In this document: one piece after another, positions 1 through 24,211 of the stretch
Position numbering within the stretch: position 1 is the first letter of the stretch
Layout: the number at the start of each line of letters is the position of its first letter
Origin: Desulfomonilia bacterium
GTDB taxonomy: Bacteria; Desulfobacterota; Desulfomonilia; UBA1062
Reading direction: 5' to 3'
DNA: 64,000 nt
Assembly: GCA_050014195.1 (NCBI GenBank)
Contig: JBEKDT010000004.1
Span: 128,001 to 192,000 of the forward strand
Position numbers and translations under genes: made by a program
Notes under the pieces: model-generated
The model's database searches: none
Told to the model about the DNA's origin: nothing
What the model saw: the letters and a program-made list of their open reading frames with translations, nothing else

Positions 1-3529
<3,529 letters not shown>

Positions 3530-3536
<7 letters not shown>

Positions 3537-6500: not shown

Positions 6501-6802
6501 GGCAGGCAGTCCATGATGCATAAGCCGAGTGCATCCTTTTCGAACAAAGCGGGCTGTGTGAAACCCGGCAGGATGCGCGAGAACATGTCCAGCACAAAGG
6601 CATTGGGAAAGGGCCAGCTCACGTTCGCGCATATGCCGCTGCCGCGCGCCAGCTCCATGGAGAGCCAGCGCTGCATGCCGCGGCTCTGCACCACGATGAC
6701 CTCTGGGGCCAGCGGCGAAGAGAGCGGCTCGGCCAAGGACGCAGCAAGGGCCTGCGAAAGGACCTCGAGCCGGTTGCTCTCAATGAGTCTCAGGCCTGAC
6801 AA
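3530..6802 (-). CDS. recC: Exodeoxyribonuclease V gamma subunit
   Basis: 1090 aa; SNRLEVL, IVVQSRGMQRWL, NPCREYW, CHSPMREVEVL, PMRSIPFKVICLMGMN motifs; TTG start with GGAGG RBS; directly upstream of recB. Confidence 0.97.
5689..5730. repeat. Same palindromic element family, in-frame inside recC (opposite orientation)
   Basis: Minus strand reads atcccccctctcctcaatcctctcccaccaggggagaggaag and encodes NPPSPQSSPTRGEE. Confidence 0.75.
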
Positions 6803-6838
6803 CAGACGCCTCCGTGCATGGAATTAAAAAGTGGGGAT

Positions 6839-7678: not shown

Positions 7679-7882
7679 GGGATTATTATATAAGTTTTTA
7701 TATATCTGGCAACATTAATTTCATACGGACAACCAACCCCCTTATGCCTTGGAGTGGAGAATAATATACTGCTATTTTAGGGATTGACAGACGGAAACAA
7801 ATCTGTCTAAAAATGTGCCTCATGTAGTCTTTGTTATGTTTACCCTCGCAAAACTCTTGCGAGACTGAGGAGGTTGTTTCCA

Positions 7883-10800: not shown

Positions 10801-12712
10801 CACCCCGGACGGAACATTCCTTTATGTGCCCGATAGCGGGGCAAACGGCGTCATGGTCATCGATTCCGGGTCAGACTCAGCGGCTGCTTTCCTGGGAGAC
10901 GATTTCAGCCGCCCCACGACCTGCGGCCATTTCATCACGAAACATAGGGAGCGGATTACCGGCAGGATCGTGGCCGATGGCGCGGGGGTCGAGGGAATCA
11001 TGGTCACGCTCACCGATGGCCGCATGACCTGGAGCTGTCCGACCGATGCACAGGGACGCTACATTTTCTATGCACCGCCCGGCAGCTATACCCTTTTCTT
11101 TTCCGGCAGGGGATATGCATTCGCGCAGCAGAACCTGGCAGTGAATGTCAGCGACAGGGAGATATCCATCACGGATACCGAGGTGCTTCTGGGCGTGAAG
11201 ATATGGTCGGAGCCCGGTTCAATAGCATCCGGACGAACGGCACTCCTGCTCTGGAGCTCGATCAAGGCTTCAAGCATCACCATAGACCAGGGCATCGGCA
11301 GTGTGGGAACGAGCGGTTCTTACGCAATATCTCCAAACGAGACCACGACCTATACGATAACCGCTTTTGACGGCCAGGGCAGGACAGTGACTGACCAGGT
11401 GACGGTGACCGTCTTCCCTCAGCCCCAGGTGAATATCAGTGCGGAGCCGCAGGTAATTTTGAAAGGACAGCCTGCCACCCTGTCATGGACGAGCACCAAT
11501 GCGGATACACTTACCTTGGGGCCATACGGATGGAATCTGGAGAACATCGGCTCTATCACGGTATTCCCTCAGGAGACCACGACCTACACCATTACCGCTT
11601 CAGGTCCGGGCGGGATTGCCACCGCCTCTGCCACTGTGACCGTGTATGAGCCGCCCCAGGTCACTATCTCAGCAAACCCCCAGACCATCTATGCAGGTGA
11701 ATCCTCTCTTCTCACCTGGTCCTCTTCCAATGTAGATCATGTCAGCATCGACAACGGCATCGGCAATGTGGAACCCGGCGGCTCAATGACCGTGAACCCC
11801 GCAAAGACCACGACTTATACCATCACCGCATCAGGCCCGGGCGGGGTCGCCGAGGCTTCAGCCACCCTGACCGTGAACAGCATCATCAGCCTCCACATCG
11901 ATTCCCCGGCAGAGGGAGCCCTCATCGACAGGCCGGACATCCTGGTGAAAGGCACCATGACAAACGTATACGGCAATGAGACCGGGGTGACGGTGAATGG
12001 GGTTCCGGCTGTCATTCATGGGGACAGGTTCTTTGTGAATCATGTGCCGCTCTCTCCAGGAGAGAATTCTCTGATAGTGCGGGCCGCCGATGTTCAAGGG
12101 AATGCTTCCGAAGTCGTTATTCCCCTTGATTGCGAGGTTACAGGGCCTTACATCACCCTGTCCGTCAATGATGCCGCGGGTATTTCACCATTCGAGTCAA
12201 TATTGAGGGTGGAGTCCTTCTTCGAGCCTGACAGCCTTACCTTCTCAGATTCCGGTCCCGGACAGATCGAGTATCTTGACGGATCGGATACGAATGAACG
12301 GCTCATAAAAATCCCAAATGCCGGAGTCTATTTCATTACGGCAAGGGTTTATAAAACCGGGGTGCTCTATACAGATACAATAGGGACTGTTGTACATGAC
12401 CGGACAGAACTTGATGGGATGCTCAGGCAGAAGTGGGCAGGCATGCGCACTGCCCTCCTGAATAATGATATTGATACGGCAGTGAAAGACATATCAAGCA
12501 GGACAAAAAATATATACCGGAATGCATTTGGCTATCTCACCGACAGCCAAAGAAGCAGCCTGGTGAATGAAATTGGTGACATCCGGCTCATCAAGATGAG
12601 AGGCACCGGAGTGGAATATGACATCCAGACAACAAGGGATGGTACCCTTTACTCATACATTCTTCTCTTCGATCTGGACGAAGACGGGATGTGGAAGGTC
12701 GCAAACTTTTGA
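7883..12712 (+). CDS. Large secreted multidomain surface protein (FN3/Ig-like, PKD, 7 Ig-like repeats, YVTN beta-propeller)
   Basis: ATG 7883 after GAGGAGG; hydrophobic N-terminus; PKD motif ADAGGPY..FDGSSSYDPDGDPLLYAWIFGDG; seven ~77-aa repeats W.S.NA..ID.GIG.V...GS..P..TTTYTITA; AYITN / AVSPDG propeller blades. Confidence 0.85.
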   Translation: MNNTCRVRTRVYSFVPRLVSVLFLIFLFLVPLSPSKTSGKSAEITCTPDPHNEIATDKNLPLGCEMTLSSSFYHEIQGNPLLYEWYGPFSPSTISEPEVFMPEGTHAVSLLTFDGVQRSAPHVLYITVDPAFSISAAAKKGKVVVTWPHVQGATRFDIYRAKESDPSRFEKIAELPAATTSYTNVNLCDATYLYAVGALSNRQWLYSQVKSSHPYLTSPMCNYPPVIYSAPITKGIVGLKYTYDVQGSDPLGDMLTYSLLSPPAGMRINSQSGLIEWTPPSLGDYEVTVKVKDCKGSYKIQKFIIEVDELPDINRNPIADAGGPYAAEVGQPISFDGSSSYDPDGDPLLYAWIFGDGSSGNGASPSHAYGAPGTYQVTLTVSDGRGGTATDATTASIQQCLPPTVGFSSNPAAIRQGESCTLLWTSKNASTLSIDHGIGDVGASGTITIQPQATTTYTITATGRCGTAAESVTVIVHSPPVVHLTAVPGSIAAGQTSKLSWTSENADTVTIDQGIGPVTPNGSLAVAPTSTTTYTITASGPGGTATDSATITVYQPPHVSLTSQPQAIAEGGASILTWTSENADSAFLDNGLGNVAVNGSLAVSPAETTTYAITVQGPGGTATASASVTVLHKPAVIIAASPDTIDAGETATLTWTSTNADSASLDQGIGAVEVNGSLQVSPSETTTYTITATSPGGIATASVPVGVNHPQLQRKACAYITNMESGDVTVVDISTNSIITRIPVGTAPYGVAVSPDGDRVYIACGGSDGGIYVIDTITNTVAGTIEGIYATTLAVNPDGSIIYAVSAVDGTLTAIDAHSHGVIGVVQTGPSPFGIAVKPDGTRIYITSMEDGTMRVIDAATLAVIDTVQIVYTGKPLWDVEVSPDGAFVYVVSSDSCLLAVIDTNTDAFVNSHFYMPERHLGRCYLAVSPDGNRIYLSINNSTYSAGSVYVIDTLSLGVVNRITAVSPSDLSFTPDGTFLYVPDSGANGVMVIDSGSDSAAAFLGDDFSRPTTCGHFITKHRERITGRIVADGAGVEGIMVTLTDGRMTWSCPTDAQGRYIFYAPPGSYTLFFSGRGYAFAQQNLAVNVSDREISITDTEVLLGVKIWSEPGSIASGRTALLLWSSIKASSITIDQGIGSVGTSGSYAISPNETTTYTITAFDGQGRTVTDQVTVTVFPQPQVNISAEPQVILKGQPATLSWTSTNADTLTLGPYGWNLENIGSITVFPQETTTYTITASGPGGIATASATVTVYEPPQVTISANPQTIYAGESSLLTWSSSNVDHVSIDNGIGNVEPGGSMTVNPAKTTTYTITASGPGGVAEASATLTVNSIISLHIDSPAEGALIDRPDILVKGTMTNVYGNETGVTVNGVPAVIHGDRFFVNHVPLSPGENSLIVRAADVQGNASEVVIPLDCEVTGPYITLSVNDAAGISPFESILRVESFFEPDSLTFSDSGPGQIEYLDGSDTNERLIKIPNAGVYFITARVYKTGVLYTDTIGTVVHDRTELDGMLRQKWAGMRTALLNNDIDTAVKDISSRTKNIYRNAFGYLTDSQRSSLVNEIGDIRLIKMRGTGVEYDIQTTRDGTLYSYILLFDLDEDGMWKVANF

Positions 12713-12797
12713 ACTATCCCGTTGCGATTGAACATCTGCTAAGGGGTTGTGATGGTATCATTACAGGTACTACAGGGCTTGTTTTGAAAAAGGGGGA

Positions 12798-13547
12798 ATG
12801 GGAATGCTGACAAAAAAGGCATGTCTGATACTGACCATGGCGATGCTTCCTCTCGGTCTTATGGGTGCAGACCTGTTCGGGAATGTGACATTCAGGGGCA
12901 AGGTGATCGATGCAGACACCCTCAAACCCATCGAAGGGGCGGTGGTAGTGGCCGAGTGGGAGAAATGCCACCCAGGGATAGGTGAAGGCTCATTATGTGA
13001 TTTCAAGATGGTTAAAGAGACACTGACAAATGCTTCTGGTGAGTGGAGCATCACAGGGCCACAAGGTGATAGTTTACCTAGTAAGACTCGGGAGATTCTC
13101 GGGTTCATCGTATCATGGACAGCACCGCCTCGTTTTCAGATCTACAAACAAGGGTACTGCAGACTTCACCAGAAACCAGGCGGATTACATGCATATCCAT
13201 ATGTAAATAAAGAAAAGAGGTTGGAAGGGATCGTATTGGTCCGCATGGGTGATACGAAAGAAGAGGAAAATGAATTTATGAAACAATATCTTCTAGAAGG
13301 TTTCGTTCCTTTTATTCCAGTTAAGGATCCGGAGAGGAAGCTTCGGGAGCTGAATTTCGACTTTCGATACCCTCCTGATGTTATGAGTATAAGGGATGTT
13401 TGGGAAAACACTATGTATGATGTAATCGGTTTAAAGAAGGCAGTGACACAAGAAGAAAAGAAGGAAGCGGAAATATTGCCTGCCACTGTAGATCATTGGA
13501 TTTATCTGCCTCTGTTAAGGAAGACAGTTGAAAATAGTATGAAATGA
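12798..13547 (+). CDS. Exported protein with carboxypeptidase-regulatory-like N-terminal domain
   Basis: Signal-like N-terminus, then FRGKVIDADTLKPIEGAVVVAEW. Confidence 0.7.
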   Translation: MGMLTKKACLILTMAMLPLGLMGADLFGNVTFRGKVIDADTLKPIEGAVVVAEWEKCHPGIGEGSLCDFKMVKETLTNASGEWSITGPQGDSLPSKTREILGFIVSWTAPPRFQIYKQGYCRLHQKPGGLHAYPYVNKEKRLEGIVLVRMGDTKEEENEFMKQYLLEGFVPFIPVKDPERKLRELNFDFRYPPDVMSIRDVWENTMYDVIGLKKAVTQEEKKEAEILPATVDHWIYLPLLRKTVENSMK

Positions 13548-13572
13548 TTGCTGAAGAGGAGGTCTTGGTGAA

Positions 13573-15741
13573 ATGAAGAGGATATGGTTAATTGTATTCT
13601 GTGGGGTCAGTCTTCTCAACCTTGTTGTAATGCATATGGACTGCTTTTGTTACAATGTGAATGATCATGGGGAAATGTGTAATTTTGTATCAGATAACAC
13701 TGTTGATGGTTTTTCTTTTGACCAATACCTGAAACACAATCTCGGTTTTGACCTCGGCAAGGATCAGTATTTCACTGAAGCCCCGATCATGGCACTATTC
13801 TGGTTCGGCATCTTTGCAAAGGAACCGGTTAATGCAAAAGAGTGTCTTGCCCAGGGAGCGAGAGACGAAGACTCTCCAGTCATTCGTTGCAAAAACCATT
13901 TTCACGACCCCTCAATGACTTGGGATCTAGCTGGGTTAAATAGGGGTGAAGGCTTAGAGGGTGGTAAGTCATCGATACTCTGGGCACAGCTTGGGCAGGG
14001 AACACAGGATTATGGTGCGTATAGCTGGCATGATGCACGGCAATACTTTTACAAAGCGCTTACCACAACAGATCCTAATGAGAAAGGCATGAACCTTATG
14101 ATGACGTTTCAGGCAGTCGGTCACCTCATGCACCTGATTCAGGATGCCTCAGTGCCGGAACATGTGAGAGATAATTCTCATATCACAGGATATAATTACG
14201 AAAAATATGTGTCAGTATATTGCAATCCAAAATCTGATAAATACAATACCTTTCTGAATTGGCTAAACGATAATACAGGATACACCTTCAACGACTCTGC
14301 CTTCAATCTGCCGAGCAACAGCGAAGCCCCGATCCCCATTGCGCGGATCGTGGATACAGACAGATATGGCGGCACGAACCCCTCCATCACCATGGAGCAG
14401 CCCATCGGCATCTCGGAATATACAAATGCAAACTATTTCAGCAAGGACACGATCTTCACATTAGATAAATATCCTTTCCCCAATTGGGGAAGCGTGGATA
14501 CCGGTGCAGTGCTCATCCAGAACCCGAGGAATTCATCCGGAGAAATACACAGGCAATATCTTCTTAAAGTGCAGGACGGAGATTCAGGTTATCGCCTCTG
14601 CACGGCACCTCTGCTTGCCGGTCAGGTCCCTGACACGGCCGAGTATCTGGCCCCCATGCTGGATGACTCCGTATATGGAGACTATGCCGCGCGGCTGGTT
14701 CCCCGGGCCGTGTCTTATTCGGCCGGGCTGCTCAAGTATTTTTTCAGGGGTACCCTTGAGATCTCGCTGCCAGCGAGCGGTGTGTATGCATTCACTTCAA
14801 CTGAACCTGCAGACCCGAGGTCAAAGGGGTTCAACAAGGTGTCCCTGATGGTAAAAAACTCTTCGAGCTCAGGTGAGCCGATGAACGCAGGGGGGATCGA
14901 ACTGGTGGTCCAGTACCGGTTCCTGACGAACGACCAGAATGCCGATGACCCTCGTTCGGCGGCACTGGACCCCTTTGTCATGTACCCGGCATCGAACCTG
15001 CCTGCCCTCAGCAAACCCATATACCTTGTGAAGGCCTTGGATTCGAATAAAGATCATCGCATAACCACTGACCCGCAATTGCTTGAATTCAACCTCGATA
15101 ACGACGAGATCCCGCTCTGGGCAATAGATGTAAGACTGTATGTCGTGTACAAGGGCAAGCTCGGTACGACCGGCAGCGGGGGATATGAGGAAGATTCCGC
15201 GGTATGCGTAGGATACAAGAATATCAATGAACCTACTTCATTGGATATCATCAATGACACAGATACGGTCTGTAAAAATGATGAATGGTGTGAAGCATCC
15301 GATGTCGAGAATGTTAAACCCAAATATATTACGAGCTTCTATCTTCGATTCTCACCGGAAGCCCAACCCCAGGATGCATCCCCTGCAGAGGGAGAACATA
15401 TTTATGCGCTCAGCAATATTAACCCCGGGAAATACAAGAGAGTCTATCTGCTGAGCGATAATACGTACAGCGAGAGTGTCCATTATTCTTATCACTTTGC
15501 CGGAGAAAGCGATATGTATGAGGGTTCAAGCACCTATCAGAGGACAGCCATCAAGAATGGGATATATCGCGATGACATCAATGATACGGTGATAAGATAT
15601 TACCCCATATTCGATGATTTCAGAAATATTACTTATTGGAACATGTTCTACTTCCTCAATTTCGACATATGTACTTTGAGCTCATGCCCGGAAGGTTGTG
15701 ATAATGCCGATAATCCCTTTGATCTTGAATTGATGTTATAA
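13573..15741 (+). CDS. Secreted protein with Zn-dependent phospholipase C / P1-nuclease-like N-terminal domain
   Basis: Signal peptide, then YNVNDH, EDS, NHFHDP, GHLMHLIQDASVPEH, YEKY, matching the Zn-ligand spacing of the PLC/P1 fold; the C-terminal ~330 aa are unassigned. Confidence 0.65.
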   Translation: MKRIWLIVFCGVSLLNLVVMHMDCFCYNVNDHGEMCNFVSDNTVDGFSFDQYLKHNLGFDLGKDQYFTEAPIMALFWFGIFAKEPVNAKECLAQGARDEDSPVIRCKNHFHDPSMTWDLAGLNRGEGLEGGKSSILWAQLGQGTQDYGAYSWHDARQYFYKALTTTDPNEKGMNLMMTFQAVGHLMHLIQDASVPEHVRDNSHITGYNYEKYVSVYCNPKSDKYNTFLNWLNDNTGYTFNDSAFNLPSNSEAPIPIARIVDTDRYGGTNPSITMEQPIGISEYTNANYFSKDTIFTLDKYPFPNWGSVDTGAVLIQNPRNSSGEIHRQYLLKVQDGDSGYRLCTAPLLAGQVPDTAEYLAPMLDDSVYGDYAARLVPRAVSYSAGLLKYFFRGTLEISLPASGVYAFTSTEPADPRSKGFNKVSLMVKNSSSSGEPMNAGGIELVVQYRFLTNDQNADDPRSAALDPFVMYPASNLPALSKPIYLVKALDSNKDHRITTDPQLLEFNLDNDEIPLWAIDVRLYVVYKGKLGTTGSGGYEEDSAVCVGYKNINEPTSLDIINDTDTVCKNDEWCEASDVENVKPKYITSFYLRFSPEAQPQDASPAEGEHIYALSNINPGKYKRVYLLSDNTYSESVHYSYHFAGESDMYEGSSTYQRTAIKNGIYRDDINDTVIRYYPIFDDFRNITYWNMFYFLNFDICTLSSCPEGCDNADNPFDLELML

Positions 15742-15803: not shown

Positions 15804-15913
15804 CCGGTTGCTCTCAATGAGTCTCAGGCCTGACAACAGACACATCCCCACATGGAATGAAAAGTGGGGGTAGTATAACATGGATGGCTCGTTTCGTGGG
15901 TGAGGAAATGTGG
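15804..15913 (-). repeat. Relic copy of recC 5' end and upstream promoter region
   Basis: 15804-15841 is identical to 6770-6807; similarity continues to 15913 (= 6880). Confidence 0.92.
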
Positions 15914-16018: not shown

Positions 16019-16228
16019 ATGAGAATATATACAGCGGTAATTGAAAAATGTAGCGATACAGGATTGTATGTCGGATACGTACCTGGTTTCGCCGGTGCCC
16101 ACTCTCAGGCTGAAAGTCTCGATGAGCTCAAGGACAATCTAAAGGAGGTCATCGAGATGTTGTTGGAAGAAGGAGAACCCGACCTTGAGGCCGAGTTTGT
16201 TGGAACCCAGACAATTCAAGTTGCCTGA
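16019..16228 (+). CDS. hicB: HicB-family antitoxin (short form)
   Basis: YTAVIEK..GLYVGYVPGFAGAHSQAESLDEL..NLKEVIEM. Confidence 0.9.
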   Translation: MRIYTAVIEKCSDTGLYVGYVPGFAGAHSQAESLDELKDNLKEVIEMLLEEGEPDLEAEFVGTQTIQVA

Positions 16229-16230
16229 TC

Positions 16231-16464
16231 ATGGTGAAGCCACCCATATTAAAACCCAAAGAGGTGGTGATTCTTCTTGAAAAAAAAGGTTTTACCGAAG
16301 TCCGCCAGAGAGGTTCACATAAACAATACCGCCACCCGGACGGCAGATACACAACTGTCCCCTTCCACCCCGGCCGTGATATTTCTCCTATACTGCTGAA
16401 ACAGATCGCCAAGGACATTGGGCTAACTGTCGAAGAATTGGTATCCTCCTCAGATTCGAAATAA
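16231..16464 (+). CDS. hicA: HicA-family mRNA interferase toxin
   Basis: GFTEVRQRGSHKQYRHPDGRYTTVPFH motif. Confidence 0.92.
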   Translation: MVKPPILKPKEVVILLEKKGFTEVRQRGSHKQYRHPDGRYTTVPFHPGRDISPILLKQIAKDIGLTVEELVSSSDSK

Positions 16465-16564: not shown

Positions 16565-16739
16565 CATTAATATCATATTGAGATCAGATCTTATTTCAAC
16601 ATGTACTGGGGCTAATATAACCATTGTATATTGGGAAGAGAATTGAAAAATTCAATGATCACCTCAAAGAATTTATTATGATGAGGGTTTATCCCAAGAA
16701 GAATGTGTCCATAACATAAAATGTTGAGGAGGATGTGGT

Positions 16740-17378
16740 ATGAAGAAATTTGATCCATTTGATTTTCCAGAGGAACAGATACCAAAACATTCTAAGGTTG
16801 TTAATGTGGTATGTTTTTTTGATGTAGTTGAATTTACAAAAGAGACTACTAATAAAGATATGCAAAATATCATAAGGAAAATTGAAGAAGATATGTCGGA
16901 TTTACTTTATAATGGTTTTAACTGGAATGAAAAAGGAAGAGATAAGTACGACGAGCCTATTCACAATGATCTTATTCTAATCCCAACTGGCGATGGTTAC
17001 GGTATAGGATTCAACCCCGGCCTCGACGATAAAAGAATATTAGATACAATAACTAGTATATATAAGCAGTTGCTCGCGGATAATGGTTTGAAAATCCGGA
17101 TGGGTGTAGCTAAGGGGCCCAATGTAAGACATATAGACAAGAACGATGTTGTTAATCTCTTCGGATATGGTATAAATTTAGCGGCCAGAGTTATAAATGT
17201 GGCAAAACCAAATCAAATTCTTTTACACTCTGTTTATGCTGAAGAACTTGGCCAGGCTACAAAGATGTCTGATCTATGCAAGATTGAAAAGCCTATGCCT
17301 AGCAAACACGGAGAAAGCATTATCGTCTATAATTATTATAGAAGTGGCGAGTTTGGCATCCCACATCCCAAACAATAA
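16740..17378 (+). CDS. Stand-alone class III adenylate/guanylate cyclase-like protein
   Basis: FFDVVEFT and PTGDG metal-binding aspartates, IRMGVAKGP, GYGINLAARV (N..R transition-state residues); GAGGAGG RBS; AT-rich. Confidence 0.82.
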   Translation: MKKFDPFDFPEEQIPKHSKVVNVVCFFDVVEFTKETTNKDMQNIIRKIEEDMSDLLYNGFNWNEKGRDKYDEPIHNDLILIPTGDGYGIGFNPGLDDKRILDTITSIYKQLLADNGLKIRMGVAKGPNVRHIDKNDVVNLFGYGINLAARVINVAKPNQILLHSVYAEELGQATKMSDLCKIEKPMPSKHGESIIVYNYYRSGEFGIPHPKQ

Positions 17379-17400
17379 TTAATAAATAACAATAAAAAAT

Positions 17401-18474
17401 ATGGAATACTATCTCTTTGTAACACATGCATGCAATATGAGATGCGCTTATTGCTCATCTCAAAGAGTATTATCTTCAAATAGCAATTCATTGTTAACCG
17501 ATGAAAAGGTAGATCAAGTTCTGGAATACATAAAAGAGAATCAAAATGGAGTTGAAGATACACTTGTTTTCTTTGGTGGTGAGCCATTATTAGAACATCA
17601 TTTGATCGAAGATATTATGAATAAGAGCAAAAACTTAAAACTAAAATATATGCTCTATTCTAATGGTTTATTAATTAACAAAGTTCCTCTTGCCCTTTTA
17701 AACTCACTCGACGCCATTTTTATATCTCTAGACGGAGATAAAACCGCGCATGATAAATATAGAGGGTTGGGAACATATGATAAGATAATTGATAACCTTA
17801 AGTACCTAAAAGCAAATGATGTTTCTTTTACAATTGGAAGGATCACTGTTGAAGAAGAGACAAATCTTTATGAATCTGTCACAAACATCTTACCACATGT
17901 CAATTCAGTATTTTGGCAAATCGTTAATAAACCAAATTTTACCAATCCAACCAAATTTATTAAAAATTATAAAGATGAACTAAATATTCTTTTTAAATAT
18001 TGGTTAGATAATTTTAGTAAAGGCAATTTAATTAATATAATCCCCTTCTTAGCCGTTGTTGATTATTTGGCATTTAACAACCGTAGGAGCCATTCATTTA
18101 GATGTGGGGCGGGTAGTAATTTTCAGGCAATTGATATTGATGGTAAAATATATTGGTGTGATGAGTATGTTGGTGATCCAGCTGGCGTAATAGGCAATAT
18201 TAAAAACCATAAAAATAACAATCATTACATATGCCACAGGGATATCTTTGAGAATTGCAAAACTTGTGATTTGGGGGATATTTGTTTGGGTAGATGTAGA
18301 AAATGTCTAACTGACTATAAAGCCGAGCACGTAGCAATGTATTGCGAGTTAACAAAGCATCTTATTAATTTAATTAAAGATAATTTAACAGAAGTTAATC
18401 AAATAATTACTAATTATAATTATAACAGCAATACTTTTTACAATATTACTCATTGCACGGAAGAAATTCCTTAA
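17401..18474 (+). CDS. Radical SAM/SPASM protein (AF0577-family-like)
   Basis: CNMRCAYC, FFGGEPLL, ISLDG, SPASM cysteines CGAG..C..CKTC..C.GRC, C-terminal EEIP; very AT-rich. Confidence 0.85.
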   Translation: MEYYLFVTHACNMRCAYCSSQRVLSSNSNSLLTDEKVDQVLEYIKENQNGVEDTLVFFGGEPLLEHHLIEDIMNKSKNLKLKYMLYSNGLLINKVPLALLNSLDAIFISLDGDKTAHDKYRGLGTYDKIIDNLKYLKANDVSFTIGRITVEEETNLYESVTNILPHVNSVFWQIVNKPNFTNPTKFIKNYKDELNILFKYWLDNFSKGNLINIIPFLAVVDYLAFNNRRSHSFRCGAGSNFQAIDIDGKIYWCDEYVGDPAGVIGNIKNHKNNNHYICHRDIFENCKTCDLGDICLGRCRKCLTDYKAEHVAMYCELTKHLINLIKDNLTEVNQIITNYNYNSNTFYNITHCTEEIP

Positions 18475-18540
18475 TCTTTTAAATCGCTTATAGTCCCTAT
18501 AAGCCTACACCCTAAACCCACCGTTTATCTCATCCGCGAA

Positions 18541-18602
18541 AAAGATGGGGTCAGAGTCCATTTTCTTCTTTAGAAAAATAAATCGTTTCTGACCCTATTT
18601 TT
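18541..18602. repeat. REP-like palindrome family C (GGGGTCAGA...TCTGACCC)
   Basis: Inverted arms; relatives at 25257-25282 (half), 28614-28660 and 43441-43490. Confidence 0.8.
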
Positions 18603-18603
18603 C

Positions 18604-18749
18604 CGGCTCTGCACTACAATGACCTCGGGGGTGAGCGGCGAGGAGAGCTGCTCGGACAAGGACGCAGCAAGTGCCTGTGAAAGTACCTCGAGCCGGTTGC
18701 TCTCAATGAGTCTCAGGCCTGGCAACAGACGCCTCCGTGCATGGAATTA
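18604..18749 (-). pseudogene. Diverged recC 5' fragment (41 codons + RBS)
   Basis: 134/146 nt identical to 6681-6826; reads MPGLRLIESNRLEVLSQALAASLSEQLSSPLTPEVIVVQSR, then runs into palindrome C. Confidence 0.93.
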
Positions 18750-19625
18750 CTTTTGCCAGAACCTTTTTATGATTATCTGCCGGGCATAATCTGCAGATTT
18801 TGGTTTGGCAGGGAACAGGCCCAAGACATTTGTTGGGACACCCTCAGGAAATCTATTAAGAATACAAGCGCCACTGGTACCACACCTCTCAAGCACATTT
18901 GTCCAGACACCCTTGGGTGACATTCGCAATGGTTCAACCCATTTTAATGAAGCGCTTTGCCAATTACTCTTGAACTGGGGATCCCATAAATTATTGTCTT
19001 CGAATAACAATTGTCCAGTCTTGGGATTCACAAATGCAAACTTCGAAGTACCATGTGTTGATGAGTGATAAACCCCGAGAACCGCAACTACACAAATGTT
19101 GTTGTTAGTAAAACTTAAATCACTGAGGATCTTATAAGCATATATCTGGTAGTCGAAAAGCTCCTCAGGTTTACCTGTAAGTAAGGAGAACTCATTTCGA
19201 TTAGTACCCTTAAATGACAATTCGAAAATAAATGGTTGATTAGGATCTTTGGTTAGGATGTCTAGTGATACAACCCCTTTACCTATTTCAATACCATTTG
19301 TCTGAATCAAGATAGGGACTTTGTATGGCTGATATGCTTCACTTAAACCGTTTAGAACATCAATTAAGCTCGACCACTGGAGTGTAGGTTCACCGCCAGT
19401 GAAACGGATGAAAGCCTTACCTTTGTCGTATAGAATACTTCGTGTCCCATCTATTATTTCTTTTGAAGATAATACATGCGAAGGATCATCTGTCTCCATT
19501 GGCCTAGATGCTGGACTCCAGCAAAAGTGGCAACTGAGATTACATCCCGAAAAATCCCACCGGATTTCCTGATACTCTCCATAGAAGAAACTTCCGGGTG
19601 AGTACTTCTTTCTTATCCTGAGCAT
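18747..19625 (-). CDS. Radical SAM protein (COG5014-like, no SPASM)
   Basis: FYG....GCNLSCHFCWS, RFTGGEPTL, IQTNGI; last gene of the MTase-HerA-NurA operon. Confidence 0.8.
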   Translation of the reverse strand: MLRIRKKYSPGSFFYGEYQEIRWDFSGCNLSCHFCWSPASRPMETDDPSHVLSSKEIIDGTRSILYDKGKAFIRFTGGEPTLQWSSLIDVLNGLSEAYQPYKVPILIQTNGIEIGKGVVSLDILTKDPNQPFIFELSFKGTNRNEFSLLTGKPEELFDYQIYAYKILSDLSFTNNNICVVAVLGVYHSSTHGTSKFAFVNPKTGQLLFEDNNLWDPQFKSNWQSASLKWVEPLRMSPKGVWTNVLERCGTSGACILNRFPEGVPTNVLGLFPAKPKSADYARQIIIKRFWQK

Positions 19626-19736
19626 CCTTTGGATACCTCTTTTTAAAAAGTACTTTATTGTATGGTTAAGGTCTCATTTACTATTTCAGTAGATTCTCTT
19701 TGGCAAAGGTTTGTAAAATTTTTTGGCTAGGAAAAT

Positions 19737-21029
19737 CTAAACTGATACCAACTTGTTTGCTAGAGCAACTGGAATAAGAGAGTTATCATACATGTTACAC
19801 CTGAGTTCAGCGATTAGAGAGAGGATCTCCTCCAAGTGTGGTATGTCTGCTGATCTTGGTTCTGCAAGATAAGAGGTTGCAGGAACAGTTAAAACGTGCA
19901 TTTCTCCACCAGAAGCTCGGTAAAATATTTTCTGGCCGTAATAGGTGTTCTGGCCATAAGATACCCCAGCTTCACCCGGTATGATATACTTACGAATATA
20001 TGAGTCTCCAACTATGAAATATGATCCCTGTTCCATACAATCCTGGATAGCTGCTGCATGCTCGACGAATGCGCCGCTCTTTTCAAGACCTGCTAAACGA
20101 ACTGTTGGACCAGTAGGTCCTCCAGGCTGGCTTAGCAAGTGTGAAATAAGCTCTCTCATAGGTTTGTAAAGGGGCGCCACTAGACCGAAAAAGGCGAGAG
20201 GACCATCTTTGATGAAGAGTATGTTTCGCATTAGGCTTGGCTTGAGGTGTTCAAGAATGTCATGGAATAGATGTACTAAGATGAGCTGCTCAAGCATTGT
20301 CATTAAATAAGAAATTATTCCACCTGCTCCGAGTTCTTCGTCAATGCGCTCATGTAATCTAAAAGTGTCTGTCAGGTATATTGGTTGATTGCATCCAGGG
20401 CATTTTTTATTAGTTGGATCACCATACTTAAAAGTAATATTGTCATGACCACAATTGTATGGGCAGTGAGCTATTGTTTCTTCATAGTTATTGTCTTGTT
20501 TACGCATCCAGCGACGGAAGAGAAACCATTGAAGACTGTCGATAAGCTTTTCACCTTCACCATGTTCCTTAATAAAAAAATCATATATGGTTCGCCGGAT
20601 TGTTGCAGACAGGGACGTTTGATCTTTATGACGAATACCCTTTGTTGGTATAACAAGTGAGTAGCGCTCTATCTTCTTTAGCCGTGCTAGATCTTCTGGG
20701 GCAATAAACCTTTTGCAATCAAGGGATCGTAGGTCTGAAAGCTCAAATAGTAATGGACCGAATGTAAAGAATGTAATCGAAGCTGAAGGATACTCTTCAC
20801 GCACAAAGGTTTCAGTAAAACCACCATCAATTGCAATTACTGCTGAGACTTCAGAAGTATCTACATTGTCAAGAATGGTCAGATAAGGCTCTAAAAACAG
20901 AGAGTCAGGTGCTGAAGGAATGATGCATTGATCAATATAAGCCTGAACATTAGGATTCTTGATTATTTCAACATGAGCGATCTTACTTGCTCGTTCAATT
21001 GGTTTACGGCCCTTTGATGAATATCCCAC
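19737..21029 (-). CDS. nurA: NurA-family nuclease (C-terminus probably frameshifted)
   Basis: AIDGG, IKDGPL, GLEKSG, IPVALANKLVS motifs; CPYNC/CPGC Zn ribbon; directly downstream of HerA. Confidence 0.8.
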   Translation of the reverse strand: MGYSSKGRKPIERASKIAHVEIIKNPNVQAYIDQCIIPSAPDSLFLEPYLTILDNVDTSEVSAVIAIDGGFTETFVREEYPSASITFFTFGPLLFELSDLRSLDCKRFIAPEDLARLKKIERYSLVIPTKGIRHKDQTSLSATIRRTIYDFFIKEHGEGEKLIDSLQWFLFRRWMRKQDNNYEETIAHCPYNCGHDNITFKYGDPTNKKCPGCNQPIYLTDTFRLHERIDEELGAGGIISYLMTMLEQLILVHLFHDILEHLKPSLMRNILFIKDGPLAFFGLVAPLYKPMRELISHLLSQPGGPTGPTVRLAGLEKSGAFVEHAAAIQDCMEQGSYFIVGDSYIRKYIIPGEAGVSYGQNTYYGQKIFYRASGGEMHVLTVPATSYLAEPRSADIPHLEEILSLIAELRCNMYDNSLIPVALANKLVSV

Positions 21030-21031
21030 CT

Positions 21032-22960
21032 TTATTGCCCCTTCAACACTGTGAATCGATCAATTTGAACAGGTACAATGAAGGCATTGGAATATGTCTT
21101 CATACGAATAAAGCCTTTGTCTGTTGTTCTTCGTAAGCTATCAACAAAGTCTTCATAATCGTAATACTTGGCTATCTCTCTTAATTCATCTCTGTTGTTT
21201 AGGTGTGAGACAAACCAGTTCTGGGTGTTCTTTAGCACGTTGGCCGAAATAGAACTTACCTCTTGCGTTGCATAGATCAATCCCAACCTGAGTTTAGCAC
21301 CTTCCTTTGCAATCCTGTTGTATATCAATGTTAAGTCAGCCTCATTCTTTTTAGGAAACAGGTTATGTGCTTCTTCGAAGTACATCTGAATGAAGTTAGC
21401 TGGTTCGTTGTTGATGAATCTTTTCATAGCATCACTGAAGATAGCTCCACATAGGCGATCAGAATACGTTCTCTGAATTTTAGGATCACCTTGCGACAGA
21501 TCAATAATTACAACCTTCCCTTCACGTAATAAATCAACTACCTCCTCTTCATAAGACTTCTGGAGTGTTGAGGTGTGAAGGTTGCGGATAGGTATTAGTT
21601 TTCGAAATCCAGCCTCACTTGCTTGATGTCCAGGAGAAGGTTTTCTTGTAAGGAACCTCATCAAGCTCTGCAAGTCATCATCAGCCCATTCGTGATTGTG
21701 ACTCGTTCGATAATTGCTGAAATATTGGTCGGTATTGTAATTATCCCAAACCCAGGTAAACCAACGTATAGTCTCGTCAACAGTAAGACCATCTTTCGGA
21801 TTCAATCCAACAGCATTGTTGATATGCTCCGTTCCAACAAATTTAATCTTATGTTTTTGAGGAATAGTGAAACCAGCATTGCCAAGTATAGCTTGGTAGC
21901 AGGCTTTACGCCTTCCATACCTTGTTGTTGCACTTACATCCTGTGAATCAGGTTCCTCCCAATTAACATTCAGGAAGGCTTGGGTATAAATTGCCCTGTC
22001 ATCTTGTAGGTTGGCCCTGATCATCTCAAAGCCTTCAAGAAGCTGCTTATAGAAATTGAGCTTCATTACTTTAAAGCCTGGTTTCTCGAGTATGCTGTAT
22101 CTAGTTACATCATCTTTGTAGAGGTTATAAATGGCGGTACCTTCATCTTGCTGATTGTCATTTGCGTACTCACCATTAACATCAAAGATGATCTGACCTA
22201 TCGGCCCAACTGTTTCTGTATCTAACATTTTCTCTAATGTAGTGATTTCAGCTGTGGCCTTGATTACCATCTTCACTGTATTGGATTTACCAGTACGTGT
22301 CATTCCAAATAGAGCTGTTCGTTTTCCTAGGTAGTCAAGTGCAGAAACATAAACTGGCACTGATGGTCCCTGGGTATGACGCTGACTAGATGCATATCGT
22401 ACCTCACCAATCCTCTGATCACCTGGTCCGCCTGGTAAACCAGCACCTTCTCTGAAGTTTACAATATATTCAAGCACTTTCCCAACTGGCTTATAGATCG
22501 AGTAGTTATTCGGACCATAAAAATTATCTACATCTGCACCAAAGCATGTCTTGCCGTCAGATATACGGTAGAAAGATCCTAGAACACGACATTCAAGGCC
22601 TGAAAACTGGAACTCATACCTAGTGTAGCTATCAAGTTGATTAATCGAAGATTCACTCTCTGCACGTTCTTTGTAGTGATCGACCATGGCAGCTACAACA
22701 TCTGAGTCAGAAGGAAGTGTTGTTGGGCCTAATACACGTAGAAGAATCAGTTCAGGATTCTCCTTATCATTATCAAATATGGCTGTGAGAAAAGAACCTG
22801 CCGGAATACCCCCAATCTTCTCTTTCCAATAATCATTTGATAGCACCTTCATTGTGTTAAAGTCGAAGTAAAAGGGGCGGCCAACAAAAGCCTCAGGCTT
22901 GGCTACATCATTGAATAAATCAACAGTTGCAAGCTCCTTTAGTCTTTCCTGAAGTGACAT
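21032..22960 (-). CDS. herA: HerA/FtsK-family ATPase (DUF87)
   Basis: Walker A GMTRTGKS, IIFDVNGEY, Walker B YFEEAH, RIAKEGAK, ATQ. Confidence 0.88.
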   Translation of the reverse strand: MSLQERLKELATVDLFNDVAKPEAFVGRPFYFDFNTMKVLSNDYWKEKIGGIPAGSFLTAIFDNDKENPELILLRVLGPTTLPSDSDVVAAMVDHYKERAESESSINQLDSYTRYEFQFSGLECRVLGSFYRISDGKTCFGADVDNFYGPNNYSIYKPVGKVLEYIVNFREGAGLPGGPGDQRIGEVRYASSQRHTQGPSVPVYVSALDYLGKRTALFGMTRTGKSNTVKMVIKATAEITTLEKMLDTETVGPIGQIIFDVNGEYANDNQQDEGTAIYNLYKDDVTRYSILEKPGFKVMKLNFYKQLLEGFEMIRANLQDDRAIYTQAFLNVNWEEPDSQDVSATTRYGRRKACYQAILGNAGFTIPQKHKIKFVGTEHINNAVGLNPKDGLTVDETIRWFTWVWDNYNTDQYFSNYRTSHNHEWADDDLQSLMRFLTRKPSPGHQASEAGFRKLIPIRNLHTSTLQKSYEEEVVDLLREGKVVIIDLSQGDPKIQRTYSDRLCGAIFSDAMKRFINNEPANFIQMYFEEAHNLFPKKNEADLTLIYNRIAKEGAKLRLGLIYATQEVSSISANVLKNTQNWFVSHLNNRDELREIAKYYDYEDFVDSLRRTTDKGFIRMKTYSNAFIVPVQIDRFTVLKGQ

Positions 22961-22975
22961 ATACTTTCATACCTC

Positions 22976-24211
22976 CTATGCCCAGTTCTTCGAGGATGAC
23001 CATTCAATCGGATTTAACCTAGGCAACTTTTTTTTGTTTGTTTTCTGGTGACCCAGGATAAGAATTCTATCAGTCTTTGTGGCCTGTCCACGGGTGTGCT
23101 TCCAGATACGGCTTACCTTATGCTCAGATGGTACTTCATCAACTATAACTGCAATACGATGCCAATCAAGCTTGGATGCAATTTCAGCCCAGACACACTC
23201 AGCAAGATTGGTAATTTTACCAGTACTCTTCTCCATGACATCACCAAAGATTAGACAGAGATATCCATCATCTCGTACGGCCTCCTTAAGTTGCTCTAGA
23301 ACTACATTCATGAATGCAAGGTATTTTCTAAGAGAACTTGTTGAGATAAGCTTTTGATCTACATTCTTAGAATCCTGCTTAAGCATCCATAAGCGTATCC
23401 AATTATATTTTCCATAACGTATAACACTTAAATATGGGGGTGAAGTGAAGACCAGCTTAGCTGGATTATTCCGAAGATCTTTTGGAAAAGGATCTCTCAC
23501 ATCTTGTCTCCAGGCATGTCCTCGTGTCCCATCTTCATTTGGTAAGTGCATCCTAGCCAACTTCGATTCCATTAAATCAAAGACATCAATATAAGGTGGA
23601 ATCAGTCCATTGTCTTTGATGTATCGACGTACGTATCCTGGTGCCATTGAGAATGTGTTTGGCATACTAATCGAAAGACCTCTTGCTGGTCTTCCTGGCT
23701 TATAATTCGCATGCATGATTCCAAGCAGTAGAGCCAATAAGAAACGATCAGTACGATCAGTGCTATTAAGCGAATCACGTAACCATAAGAGTTGCCCAAG
23801 AACAATTGGGTGATAAAGCATTTGGATGTCATCTGGAGCCTCTGCGGGGTTACCAGGGCAACATGCCTTACGGAGTATATGAATTCGGTCAAGAGCCTCT
23901 TTTTGAGAAGGTGGGTTTACCTTTGCACCAGTTAATATGTAAGCTAATGGGTTTGCATCAGAACCAAAGCCAATGCGCCCTAGACGGCATGCCTCCATGG
24001 GGGTTGTACCTCTACCTGAGAATGGATCATAAACGATATCCCCTGCATCAGTCAGCCAGCGGATGAAAACATGTGGAATATGTGGCGGGAACATAGCAAA
24101 ATAAGAGCAAAGAGAGTGCAAGGGATGGCCCCAGCGTCTTGGTGCTATATGCCACTGTTGATTAATATGGCTGGTACATACTTTTAAACTTCGGGCGTAA
24201 TTCTCAGACAA
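22976..24211 (-). CDS. DNA amino-methyltransferase (N4-C/N6-A)
   Basis: Motif I DPFSGRGTT near the N-terminus and catalytic TSPPY later (alpha order); TTG start with GGAGG RBS. Confidence 0.88.
   Translation of the reverse strand: MSENYARSLKVCTSHINQQWHIAPRRWGHPLHSLCSYFAMFPPHIPHVFIRWLTDAGDIVYDPFSGRGTTPMEACRLGRIGFGSDANPLAYILTGAKVNPPSQKEALDRIHILRKACCPGNPAEAPDDIQMLYHPIVLGQLLWLRDSLNSTDRTDRFLLALLLGIMHANYKPGRPARGLSISMPNTFSMAPGYVRRYIKDNGLIPPYIDVFDLMESKLARMHLPNEDGTRGHAWRQDVRDPFPKDLRNNPAKLVFTSPPYLSVIRYGKYNWIRLWMLKQDSKNVDQKLISTSSLRKYLAFMNVVLEQLKEAVRDDGYLCLIFGDVMEKSTGKITNLAECVWAEIASKLDWHRIAVIVDEVPSEHKVSRIWKHTRGQATKTDRILILGHQKTNKKKLPRLNPIEWSSSKNWA

Follow-up and report, generated by a model that had tools for sequence, protein, structure and literature searches.

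A class III nucleotide cyclase paired with a radical SAM/SPASM enzyme as the possible core of a Pycsar-related module

Organization of the locus

Within the 64,000-nt stretch of DNA analyzed here (the window), a gene for a small nucleotide cyclase is followed on the plus strand, after a gap of 22 nt, by a gene for a radical SAM (rSAM)/SPASM enzyme, and both reading frames lie where the initial annotation had placed them (Table 1). The unit was originally described as very AT-rich, and its GC fraction is indeed 0.30-0.36 over 16.5-18.5 kb, compared to 0.45-0.58 in the flanks (10-12 kb and beyond 25 kb). The promoter-like motif that had been assigned to the unit is present, although sites of this kind are no more frequent in the region than in shuffled sequences (14 vs 11.9 +/- 3.1), which leaves it as weak support for a dedicated promoter. 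Similarly, the suggestion that the unit is bounded by palindromes is weakly supported. Two hairpins lie 3' of the rSAM stop codon, the second with a U-run, and none of 200 shuffles folds equally well (z = -5.07), whereas the 281 nt located 5' of the pair carry no structure above chance (z = 0.54). The longer hairpin was missed by a simple terminator scan because its loop exceeds the size that such a scan allows. An Rfam search over 15.7-19.0 kb returned a single sub-threshold chance match and nothing else.

Copies of a repeat derived from recC delimit a segment that contains hicBA, the cyclase gene, and the rSAM gene. The right-hand copy is placed in an open reading frame (ORF) for an N-terminal RecC fragment (PF04257, 34.3 bits, profile positions 1-39). 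In the window, HicAB lies to one side of the pair and an MTase-HerA operon to the other. A second rSAM gene (18747-19625) was rejected as a part of the module, since no locus other than copies identical to the window was found to carry it. The hicBA genes are also outside of the conserved module, though they share the repeat-bounded segment, and they were not seen beside the pair in the ORF maps of related loci.

Table 1. Positions of genes and sequence elements at the locus, numbered from the first letter of the window
Feature	Coordinates	Strand	Remarks
Repeat copy 2	15804..15858	+	55 nt, duplicated 5' end of recC; left edge of 2.9-kb segment
hicBA toxin-antitoxin pair	16019..16464	+	hicB 16019-16228, hicA 16231-16464; within repeat-bounded segment
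Promoter-like TTGAAA-18-AAGAAT	16643..16672	+	9/12 match; weak, not above chance
Shine-Dalgarno-like GAGGAGGA	16726..16733	+	Ends 6 nt ahead of cyclase ATG; read from sequence
Cyclase gene	16740..17378	+	212 aa
rSAM/SPASM gene	17401..18474	+	357 aa
Perfect 8-bp hairpin	18486..18504	+	Shortly 3' of rSAM stop
Long hairpin	18534..18606	+	13-bp inner stem, then UAUUUUU; terminator-like end of two-gene unit
RecC fragment ORF	18570..18725	-	51 aa, N-terminal fragment; repeat copy 3 placed in it
Repeat copy 3	18693..18747	+	Same 55-nt recC repeat; right edge of 2.9-kb segment
Second rSAM gene	18747..19625		Rejected as module part

The cyclase

The first gene encodes a minimal, single-domain class III nucleotide cyclase whose catalytic set is intact. 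Its match to PF00211, one of the profiles that had been proposed as a check, reaches 26.6 bits, which exceeds the gathering score of 21.9, and is confined to residues 103-165. The AF2 model (pLDDT 89.7) forms one domain, and its top Foldseek matches are the catalytic domains of adenylyl and guanylyl cyclases (TM 0.56-0.68, probability 1.00). Neither this model nor a domain search revealed an additional domain or a transmembrane (TM) segment, in keeping with the initial view that the protein has no sensor or TM domain. Among 27 homologs, the residues D28, P82-T83-G84-D85-G86, R120, N139, G142, G144, A148, and R150 are invariant, and N146 is kept in all 14 of the rSAM-linked cyclases. We take D28 and D85 to be the metal-binding residues and N146 and R150 to be the transition-state residues; the LIPTGDG stretch, the two catalytic aspartates, and the N..R pair had been read correctly. 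Canonical class III cyclases select their base with Lys and Asp for ATP or with Glu and Cys for GTP. The positions that presumably correspond to the canonical Lys and Asp are instead occupied by I81, which is Ile or Val across the family, and by the invariant N139.

The cyclase family is small and discrete, comprising 62 clusters. No PADLOC model matched the window cyclase or its counterpart in locus L004 at E <= 1, and no NCBIfam model matched the window cyclase at E <= 0.01; as judged by these two model sets, the protein falls outside of PycC. No conserved Cys is present in the cyclase, and no radical-target-like residue was seen to be conserved solely in the rSAM-linked members. Searches of viral contigs found no relatives of the cyclase, and searches of plasmids returned no match to the cyclase or to the rSAM enzyme.

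The radical SAM/SPASM enzyme

The second gene product belongs to the radical SAM/SPASM superfamily (PF04055, 64.6 bits). Its CX3CX2C motif (C11/C15/C18) is invariant in 45 sequences, as are the SPASM cysteines C235, C253, C286, C289, C295, C299, and C315 together with G248. The seven-cysteine SPASM motif has the general form C-x9-15-G-x4-C, gap, C-x2-C-x5-C-x3-C, gap, C. The C-terminus carries a conserved helical extension and a TEEIP tail, and a distant relative (G283) whose gene does not adjoin a cyclase gene shares a tail of this TE-x-IP type.

The best family for this enzyme is TIGR04084 (rSAM_AF0577), which is matched from end to end (profile positions 1-347 of 347). However, the score of 190.5 bits lies below the cutoff of 225, and thus the label "AF0577-like" is apt as a pointer to the nearest family and fails as a statement of membership. 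The rSAM partners at L002, L003, and L004 likewise find their best match in this family, again end to end, and with scores of 205.9, 172.2, and 152 bits they too remain under the cutoff. The cyclase-linked enzymes form a small, discrete bacterial subfamily of 65 clusters, all matched at E <= 8e-67, and the match that comes next is at 8e-23. Among large Atlas clusters, the closest comprise uncharacterized stand-alone archaeal genes for proteins of 353-374 aa. We know of no function for the TIGR04084 family, and no paper discussing TIGR04084/AF0577 was found among the matches listed. On viral contigs, only relatives with <=30% identity were recovered, all of them from other SPASM families.

When the predicted structure was compared with known folds, the best match was anSMEcpe (PDB 4K36-4K39; TM 0.73-0.75), which aligns over the full length with 22-24% identity, and CteB and ChlB were also among the best folds. 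The nucleoside- or nucleotide-acting enzymes BlsE, MoaA, and the viperins appear further down the list. Similarly, the best NCBIfam matches after TIGR04084 are all peptide or protein maturases, and the viperin and MoaA models cover the N-terminal rSAM core only, far below their cutoffs. No conserved small ORF that could encode a precursor peptide is present within 400 nt on either side of the pair in 14 loci, PycTM and TIR genes aside, and Pfam and NCBIfam profile searches recognized no cyclic nucleotide (cNMP)-binding domain in the rSAM enzyme. The predicted complex of the rSAM enzyme with the cyclase received a score of 0.00 and was used neither for nor against any reading.

Recurrence of the pair

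An rSAM homolog adjoins the cyclase gene in 19 of the 36 loci that were fetched with the cyclase profile, and merging copies reduces these to 14 distinct loci, window included. The initial annotation had treated an absence of adjacency in other genomes as grounds for abandoning a link between the two genes, and the adjacency proves to recur, with named records that span four phyla. Named hosts include Aminicenantales, Oscillospiraceae, and Paludibacteraceae, and a Desulfobaccales contig stops right at the cyclase gene. The spacing between the two genes ranges from an 11-nt overlap to a gap of about 80 nt, and the gene order is reversed in L004 and L019. The clade that contains the window cyclase has 19 rows, of which 14 are rSAM-linked, two are linked to HEAT-repeat proteins, and three are uninformative or different. 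Furthermore, the supported nodes of the cyclase tree recur in the rSAM tree (the window with L012, the L003-L022 group, and L004 with L019). The adjacency is not a chance neighborhood, and the two genes are inherited together.

The distribution is extremely patchy. Of the 52 genomes examined from the order, a single one has the cyclase, and the rSAM enzyme occurs in 4 of 401 genomes of the phylum sample. Two genomes of one genus (G191 and G125) carry an rSAM enzyme that is 43-44% identical and have no cyclase anywhere in the genome. Nearly all of the hosts are uncultured.

Effectors and neighboring genes

Pycsar systems are defined by the synthesis of cCMP or cUMP together with protection against phage, and their two-gene operons encode a PycTM or PycTIR effector. 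A comparison of the present locus with Pycsar had been drawn from the cyclase, with the remark that no TM or TIR effector is present here. That comparison is strengthened by L017, L018, and L022, in which the ORF directly 3' of the rSAM gene gives a full-length match to the PADLOC PycTM models (E 1e-14 to 1e-18) and ends the operon. A near-identical locus (L023) carries the start of the gene, its contig ending after the first 20 PycTM residues. PycTM is therefore found in three of the 14 distinct rSAM-linked loci, plus this gene start, and most of the others have no recognizable effector. The remark regarding the window also stands, because no PycTM or PycTIR gene is adjacent to the pair, and a search with PDLC02364 across all contigs of the genome, whose completeness is 100%, found no PycTM. 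The window's contig encodes neither a TIR_2 nor a cNMP-binding protein, matches being confined to other contigs, where six cNMP-binding proteins of Crp/Fnr size are located.

In sister lineages of the cyclase, a HEAT-repeat protein adjoins the cyclase (L005, L007, L015, L029, and L033), or a HEAT domain is fused to it (L030 and P0158). None of the six HEAT-linked cyclases has retained N146, and therefore they are possibly not functional analogs of the rSAM-linked enzymes. Fusions of TIR to the cyclase occur within the same family (P0129, P0152, and P0162). Among the genes that neighbor the pair are those for TIR_2 (L004 and L019), PIN_12 (L003), GmrSD (L014), HNH (L013), and an HD/dGTPase-like protein (L020). 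The TIR protein in L004 and L019 is encoded convergently with the pair and carries no cNMP-binding domain; it may therefore represent a separate system.

Relation to known systems

Like Pycsar, the window pair has a variable-island context and includes a class III cyclase that is small, stands alone, and retains its catalytic residues, and the similarity extends to the PycTM genes noted above. In contrast to Pycsar, however, an rSAM/SPASM gene is inserted beside the cyclase gene in loci of the window type, the window cyclase eludes the PADLOC models, and its genome provides no PycTM or PycTIR to accompany the pair. In the portions of PMC13069673 and PMC11224242 that discuss Pycsar clades A-F, no rSAM partner is shown, and the excerpts of literature joining Pycsar with radical SAM describe no such pair. 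Literature searches combining radical SAM, SPASM, adenylate cyclase, and anti-phage defense yielded nothing relevant, and those joining SPASM with CBASS found nothing. Thus, the pair is undescribed in the literature searched.

The rSAM enzyme shares with anSMEcpe a three-cluster rSAM/SPASM layout and the lack of an N-terminal leader-recognition domain. Enzymes of the anSME type act directly on a protein rather than on a leader-bearing peptide, and their sulfatase targets carry the motif Cys/Ser-X-Pro-X-Arg. The window enzyme differs in that it scores 99.1 against TIGR03942, far from the cutoff of 349.45, and in that its neighbors include a cyclase gene and no sulfatase gene. No Cys/Ser-X-Pro-X-Arg motif was noticed in the cyclase. 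Assignment as a maturase of ribosomal peptides (PapB, sactipeptide, or ranthipeptide type) was rejected, given that no precursor is co-encoded and that the PapB model scores 144 against 340.

Other defense systems offer more distant parallels. CBASS types II and III combine a signal synthase and a variable effector with Cap2/Cap3 or HORMA/TRIP13 proteins that modify or bind the synthase. The present module might follow a similar logic of synthase, effector, and an extra conserved control gene, but this would be a functional analogy only, as the protein families are unrelated and no CD-NTase, E1/E2, or HORMA gene is present at the window locus. The prokaryotic viperins (pVips) are likewise rSAM enzymes in defense islands, where they act on nucleotides, and PADLOC pVip models match the rSAM core (3.8e-19). 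That match is restricted to residues 6-182, however, and viperin folds rank well below anSME. Viperins have no SPASM domain, and the SPASM architecture, the core-only match, and a score of 63.4 against 180 for NF038283 led to the rejection of the window enzyme as a viperin. Also rejected as the same system was Ophion, an rSAM defense system that is made up of different genes (rSAM, PHP, and PRTase).

Possible roles of the pair

The comparative evidence makes it probable that the pair constitutes a defense-type cNMP module in which the rSAM partner is obligate, its anti-phage role being suggested by genomic context. This context includes the patchy occurrence of the cyclase within its order and the AT-rich, repeat-bounded nature of the unit. 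Our best reading, which is held tentatively, is more specific in proposing that an undescribed module related to Pycsar, mobile by horizontal transfer, has these two genes as its conserved core. The minimal cyclase would dimerize to produce a 3',5'-cyclic mononucleotide. With Ile or Val and Asn at the base-selecting positions, this product is unlikely to be plain cAMP or cGMP. The anSME-like rSAM enzyme would serve as an obligate accessory that modifies a protein, and this modification might switch on or prime the cyclase. The likeliest substrate would be the cyclase itself or another protein with which the cyclase is presented during infection. In sister lineages, the accessory place of the rSAM enzyme would be filled by the HEAT-repeat partner or the fused HEAT domain. 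Where PycTM is encoded, the nucleotide would open this membrane effector.

This gating role for the rSAM enzyme is less certain than the defense-type module itself and is likewise held tentatively. Three roles had been offered initially for the rSAM enzyme, namely, nucleotide modification, an effector function, and maturation of the cyclase. The comparative evidence leans toward a protein-directed accessory or regulatory enzyme because anSME and CteB are the closest folds, no precursor gene is present, and HEAT partners or fusions occur with sister cyclases. Further support is provided by the tight coupling or overlap of the two genes. Counting against the best reading are the genus with an orphan rSAM gene, the many loci that are without an effector, and the failure of PADLOC and NCBIfam models to match the cyclase. 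The same applies to the lack in the cyclase of a conserved Cys or of a typical radical target specific to rSAM-linked members, to the loss of N146 in HEAT-linked cyclases, and to the possibly separate nature of the TIR protein in L004 and L019. Because no PycTM is encoded genome-wide, and no TIR or cNMP-binding gene is located on the contig, an accessory role for the rSAM enzyme leaves the window copy without a known effector. Accordingly, either the read-out is encoded elsewhere, perhaps by one of the six cNMP-binding proteins, or this unit is incomplete.

The main rival to gating, which we regard as unlikely, is that the two enzymes together produce a modified nucleotide. The rSAM enzyme might alter an NTP before cyclization, or it might oxidize, cross-link, or otherwise rewrite the cNMP made by the cyclase, with radical oxidation and C-C/C-O cyclization as conceivable reactions. 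The outcome would be a novel messenger that escapes removal by phage cNMP phosphodiesterases or sponges, or else a nucleotide with direct antiviral action, and in the latter instance the two-gene unit would be self-sufficient. A self-sufficient product would fit the many loci, including the window, that have no separate effector, and full catalytic sets in both enzymes of all linked members, the non-canonical base-selecting positions, and the missing precursor peptide are all compatible with such chemistry. The low-ranking BlsE, MoaA, and viperin folds and the weak partial matches to viperin models can also be cited in its favor, but these models reach only the N-terminal core with scores far under their cutoffs (63 vs 180 for viperin), and proteins or peptides are the substrates of the nearest folds and families. 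Rewriting of the nucleotide also leaves the replacement by, or fusion to, HEAT repeats in sister cyclases unexplained, and it fits poorly with the genus in which the rSAM enzyme occurs without a cyclase.

More doubtful still is a non-immune function, in which the pair would be an accessory signaling or maturation unit in the physiology of anaerobes and its location in a variable island would reflect mobility only. Such a unit could be a redox- or SAM-sensing switch acting on a cNMP signal that is read by Crp-type regulators, for which the six Crp/Fnr-size proteins would be candidates, or the cyclase-like protein could be a substrate that the rSAM enzyme matures for some other purpose. The archaeal stand-alone relatives of the rSAM enzyme, the predominance of uncultured hosts, and the absence of close relatives on plasmids or viral contigs would be in accord with this view. 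PycTM genes in the same operon at several loci, TIR fusions in the same cyclase family, recurrent defense genes among the neighbors, and the very patchy spread of both genes argue against it. Least probable among the alternatives is that the rSAM enzyme is the effector, activated by the cNMP to harm the infected cell, with uncoupled SAM cleavage and radical damage as possible means. The enzyme would then occupy the slot of PycTM or PycTIR, mirroring the cyclase-effector layout of two-gene Pycsar operons, and would supply the effector that neither the window nor the genome otherwise offers. The conserved C-terminal extension and TEEIP tail might serve this function, except that such a tail also occurs in G283 without an adjacent cyclase. 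Moreover, the enzyme has no recognizable cNMP-binding domain, loci with PycTM downstream would encode two effectors per operon, and the HEAT-repeat proteins that take the same position are unlikely effectors.

Implications for cyclic-nucleotide immunity

Immunity mediated by cyclic nucleotides is a central theme of phage defense, as exemplified by CBASS, Pycsar, Thoeris, and type III CRISPR systems, and the pair looks like an undescribed variant of it. To our knowledge, the mechanism by which Pycsar cyclases are switched on has not been established. A cyclase family that travels with an rSAM/SPASM enzyme, or with a HEAT partner in sister lineages, offers a handle on how such cyclases are controlled. 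If the proposals above are true, control would be exerted by radical modification of a protein or the signal would be chemically rewritten, and either would represent new chemistry in bacterial immunity. Should the nucleotide be rewritten, the rSAM partner would become the first example of a SPASM enzyme in nucleotide immune signaling and would provide bacteria with a means to escape phage cNMP phosphodiesterases and sponges. In addition, the pair would supply the first functional context for relatives of the uncharacterized TIGR04084 family. The three-gene form, with cyclase, rSAM enzyme, and PycTM, is compact enough for direct testing. For the loci of the HEAT-linked sister cyclases, nine of the ten neighboring proteins tested as known effectors gave no PADLOC match, and the sole match was a mad8/HerA-like protein of 924 aa in L015.

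Organization of the gene pair

The initial annotation placed a nucleotide cyclase gene and a radical SAM/SPASM gene (rSAM) at 16740-18474 of the window, and both ORFs were confirmed there, on the plus strand, separated by an intergenic gap of 22 nt. The AT-richness of the pair also holds, with a GC content of 0.30-0.36 compared to 0.45-0.58 in the flanks (10-12 kb and past 25 kb). The regulatory signals fared less evenly. Promoter-like hexamers do exist at 16643-16672, but such sites are not enriched over chance in the pair's region (14 observed versus 11.9 +/- 3.1 expected from shuffled sequence). Likewise, palindromes had been proposed on both flanks. Two hairpins lie 3' of the rSAM stop, the second built on a 13-bp inner stem and trailed by a U-run, and their region folds far better than its shuffles (z = -5.07), but nothing beyond chance structure is seen in the 281 nt 5' of the cyclase (z = 0.54 versus shuffles). 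An Rfam search of the pair's region gave no meaningful match.

Positions of the gene pair, repeats and related loci
Feature	Location	Strand or orientation	Remarks
Cyclase ORF	16740-17378	+	212 aa
rSAM ORF	17401-18474	+	357 aa
Shine-Dalgarno-like GAGGAGGA	6 nt 5' of cyclase ATG	+	Strong; direct sequence reading
55-nt repeat, three copies	6770-6824, 15804-15858, 18693-18747		5' end of recC
recC, intact	3530-6802	minus	Headed by 55-nt copy 1
Orphan rSAM locus L122 (genome G191)	1498-3460		
Orphan rSAM locus L123 (genome G125)	1-1460		
TIR_2 protein	L004 and L019	Convergent to pair	Without cNMP-binding domain
PIN_12 protein	L003		Neighbour of pair
GmrSD	L014	Same strand as pair	38 nt upstream of pair
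HNH protein	L013		Neighbour of pair
HD/dGTPase-like protein	L020		Neighbour of pair

Properties of the two proteins

The cyclase matches PF00211 at 26.6 bits (Pfam threshold 21.9) over residues 103-165 only, and no PADLOC or NCBIfam model matches it. Its AlphaFold model, made with 27 homologues as input, is a confident single domain (pLDDT 89.7) that most resembles adenylyl and guanylyl cyclase catalytic domains. Residues D28, PTGDG (82-86, including D85), R120, N139 and R150 are invariant among the 27 homologues, and N146 is present in 14 of 14 rSAM-linked cyclases, which upholds the earlier reading of an intact Asp pair and Asn/Arg. In class III cyclases, D28 and D85 correspond to the metal-binding aspartates, and N146 and R150 to the Asn/Arg pair of the transition state, and the cyclase looks enzymatically active. 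At the base-selecting positions 81 and 139, Ile/Val and Asn are found versus the canonical Lys/Asp or Glu/Cys, and the product nucleotide therefore is not predictable. The family is small and discrete (62 clusters).

The rSAM carries CX3CX2C at residues 11-18, a complete seven-cysteine SPASM motif, and a conserved TEEIP at its C terminus; both cysteine motifs are invariant across 45 sequences. The label "AF0577-like" stands insofar as TIGR04084 is the best family and matches end-to-end, but the score of 190.5 bits falls below the cutoff of 225. All families ranking next are peptide or protein maturases. The closest structure to the rSAM model (pLDDT 92.3) is the anaerobic sulfatase maturase anSMEcpe (TM 0.73-0.75), followed by the sactipeptide enzyme CteB and ChlB, and the nucleotide-directed enzymes BlsE, MoaA and viperins hold lower ranks. 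In the Atlas, the closest large clusters consist of archaeal rSAM/SPASM proteins 353-374 aa long. This family also is small and discrete, with 65 clusters at E <= 8e-67 and the next match at 8e-23, a gap that can be trusted only as far as the word-index search that produced it. On the grounds of residue conservation, both enzymes of the pair are shown to be catalytically intact.

Recurrence of the pair

A cyclase-family profile retrieved 36 loci (29 metagenomic ones and seven on contigs of a one-genome-per-species set), and an rSAM homologue adjoins the cyclase in 19 of them. When copies are collapsed (L008-L011 match the window exactly, L016 duplicates L002, and L023 differs little from L022), 14 distinct loci with the adjacent genes are left, window included. 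Recurrence in other genomes, on which the initial annotation had made its reading depend, is thus borne out. Named hosts are MAGs of Aminicenantales, Oscillospiraceae and Paludibacteraceae, and a Desulfobaccales contig stops right at the cyclase. TIGR04084 is also the top family for the rSAM partners in L002, L003 and L004 (205.9, 172.2 and 152 bits). The spacing of the two genes ranges from overlap to ~80 nt, and their order is swapped in L004 and L019. Within the window's clade of the cyclase tree, 14 of 19 rows are rSAM-linked, and the supported groups of this tree are also recovered by the rSAM tree. The pair is shown to be co-inherited in loci with named records from four phyla.

The loci without an rSAM include six distinct ones with a HEAT-repeat partner, two with other neighbours (L026 and L027), and L024/L025 (3023-3505 and 1-585, respectively), where an N-terminally truncated cyclase (160-aa ORF) sits in a GC-rich context. 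The others are a locus cut by its contig end (L001) and fragments or very short contigs (L006/L036, L032, L034, L035).

In the portions available of the literature on Pycsar, CBASS and TIGR04084/AF0577, no description of a cyclase-rSAM/SPASM pair was found, and a listing in a large screen's supplement is possible. Pycsar clades A-F are described without such a partner in the available parts of PMC13069673 and PMC11224242. Ophion, which appears beside Pycsar in the radical SAM literature, is unrelated to the pair as far as the accessible text describes it.

Partners, orphans and fusions

The pair is sometimes found in an operon with PycTM, the Pycsar membrane effector. In L017, L018 and L022, the next ORF begins 15-18 nt past the rSAM stop and matches the three PADLOC PycTM models and the CBASS 2TM effector models along the full length of the models (E-values 1e-14 to 1e-19); the Pfam PycTM match is weak (18-22 bits, threshold 27.2). 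The initial 20 residues of a PycTM-type gene are visible at the contig end of L023. The ORFs after the rSAM in L012 (2332-2961) and L002 (7965-8558) match nothing in Pfam or PADLOC; the former, whose sequence reads as one transmembrane helix and a beta-rich domain, could be an unrecognised effector. An exhaustive cyclase-profile search gave 43 representatives at E <= 1e-30, three of them TIR fusions. Two (P0129, P0152) have an N-terminal TIR and a degenerate active site that lacks the metal-binding Asp, the Asn/Arg pair or both, and the third (P0162) has a C-terminal TIR and the full catalytic residue set.

Sister cyclases are accompanied by ~180-aa proteins of the HEAT/PBS-lyase repeat type, located 3' of the cyclase in L015, L029 and L007 and 5' in L005/L031 and L033; HEAT repeats are fused to the cyclase N terminus in L030 and P0158. 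HEAT-linked and rSAM-linked members are interleaved in the cyclase tree; partner swaps have therefore taken place. The HEAT-linked cyclases have Val or Ile at the N146 position (Asn kept in 0 of 6). No known effector model matched the other HEAT-locus neighbours tested. Together, the cyclase and HEAT-repeat protein form another cyclase-partner module that has no name yet.

The rSAM is able to persist on its own, as seen in G191 and G125, which belong to one genus: each encodes an rSAM of the cyclase-linked subfamily (43-44% identity) with the TEEIP tail, and no cyclase was found anywhere in either genome. In G191, the expected place of the cyclase, 5' of the rSAM, is taken by an AT-rich non-coding stretch of 870 nt; the G125 contig leaves only 368 nt 5' of the rSAM, with sequence shared with the G191 stretch. 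These orphans nest among cyclase-linked rSAMs in the rSAM tree, which fits secondary loss of the cyclase. Translations 3' of the G191 rSAM read as ferredoxin-like and aldehyde-oxidoreductase-like ORFs. A more distant relative (genome G283) lies at a contig start with a small ORF adjoining. Viral contigs and plasmids yielded no close relatives of the cyclase or rSAM.

Possible roles of the rSAM

The cyclase would make a non-canonical cNMP signal, with the rSAM as an obligate accessory enzyme. Tentatively favoured is a protein-directed role in which the rSAM gates the system, because the folds and families closest to it have protein or peptide substrates, because it lacks, like anSME, a leader-recognition domain, because no precursor peptide is encoded nearby, and because the two genes are translationally coupled. 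Furthermore, sister cyclases have a protein-binding HEAT module in the equivalent position, in some cases as a fusion. Rewriting of the nucleotide by the rSAM, the main rival, is rather unlikely, but it would best account for the two-gene loci without an effector, and most rSAM-linked loci have no recognisable one. The orphan rSAMs, the scarcity of recognisable effectors, the lack of a PADLOC or NCBIfam match for the cyclase and the absence of close relatives from viral contigs and plasmids all speak against a tight, self-evident system. That the rSAM is itself the effector is the least probable reading, and a non-immune role is improbable to a slightly lesser degree; the pair is located in variable, defence-rich DNA.

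Setting in the genome

The 4.2-Mb genome has one cyclase copy. Of 52 genomes from the order, one has the cyclase; of 401 genomes sampled across the phylum, four have a member of the rSAM subfamily. PycTM is absent from the whole genome, and the TIR_2 proteins (three) and cNMP-binding proteins (six) are all encoded on other contigs. The genome contains exactly three copies of a 55-nt sequence, all of them within the window and in a single orientation, with copy 3 inside a 51-aa RecC N-terminal fragment. Copies 2 and 3 enclose ~2.9 kb with hicBA, the cyclase and the rSAM. With the copies reading L+core+R, X+core+R and L+core+Y, the arrangement resembles two tandem insertions at a recC-proximal hotspot, of which this segment would be one. 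No integrase was seen among annotated ORFs on either side, and the window has no tRNA gene. The variable island extends from recC to ~25 kb, where beta-oxidation genes start.

The neighbouring repeat-bounded segment (7874-15741) encodes a 1612-aa PKD/Ig/beta-propeller surface-type protein as well as 249-aa and 722-aa proteins without a Pfam match. Convergent to the pair is a four-gene minus-strand operon (18747-24211) whose products are a type II-like DNA methyltransferase of 411 aa, a 642-aa HerA-like ATPase, a protein of 430 aa without a family match, and another radical SAM protein, which is 292 aa long and lacks a SPASM domain. This operon may represent a defence system of its own, unnamed and associated with methylation.
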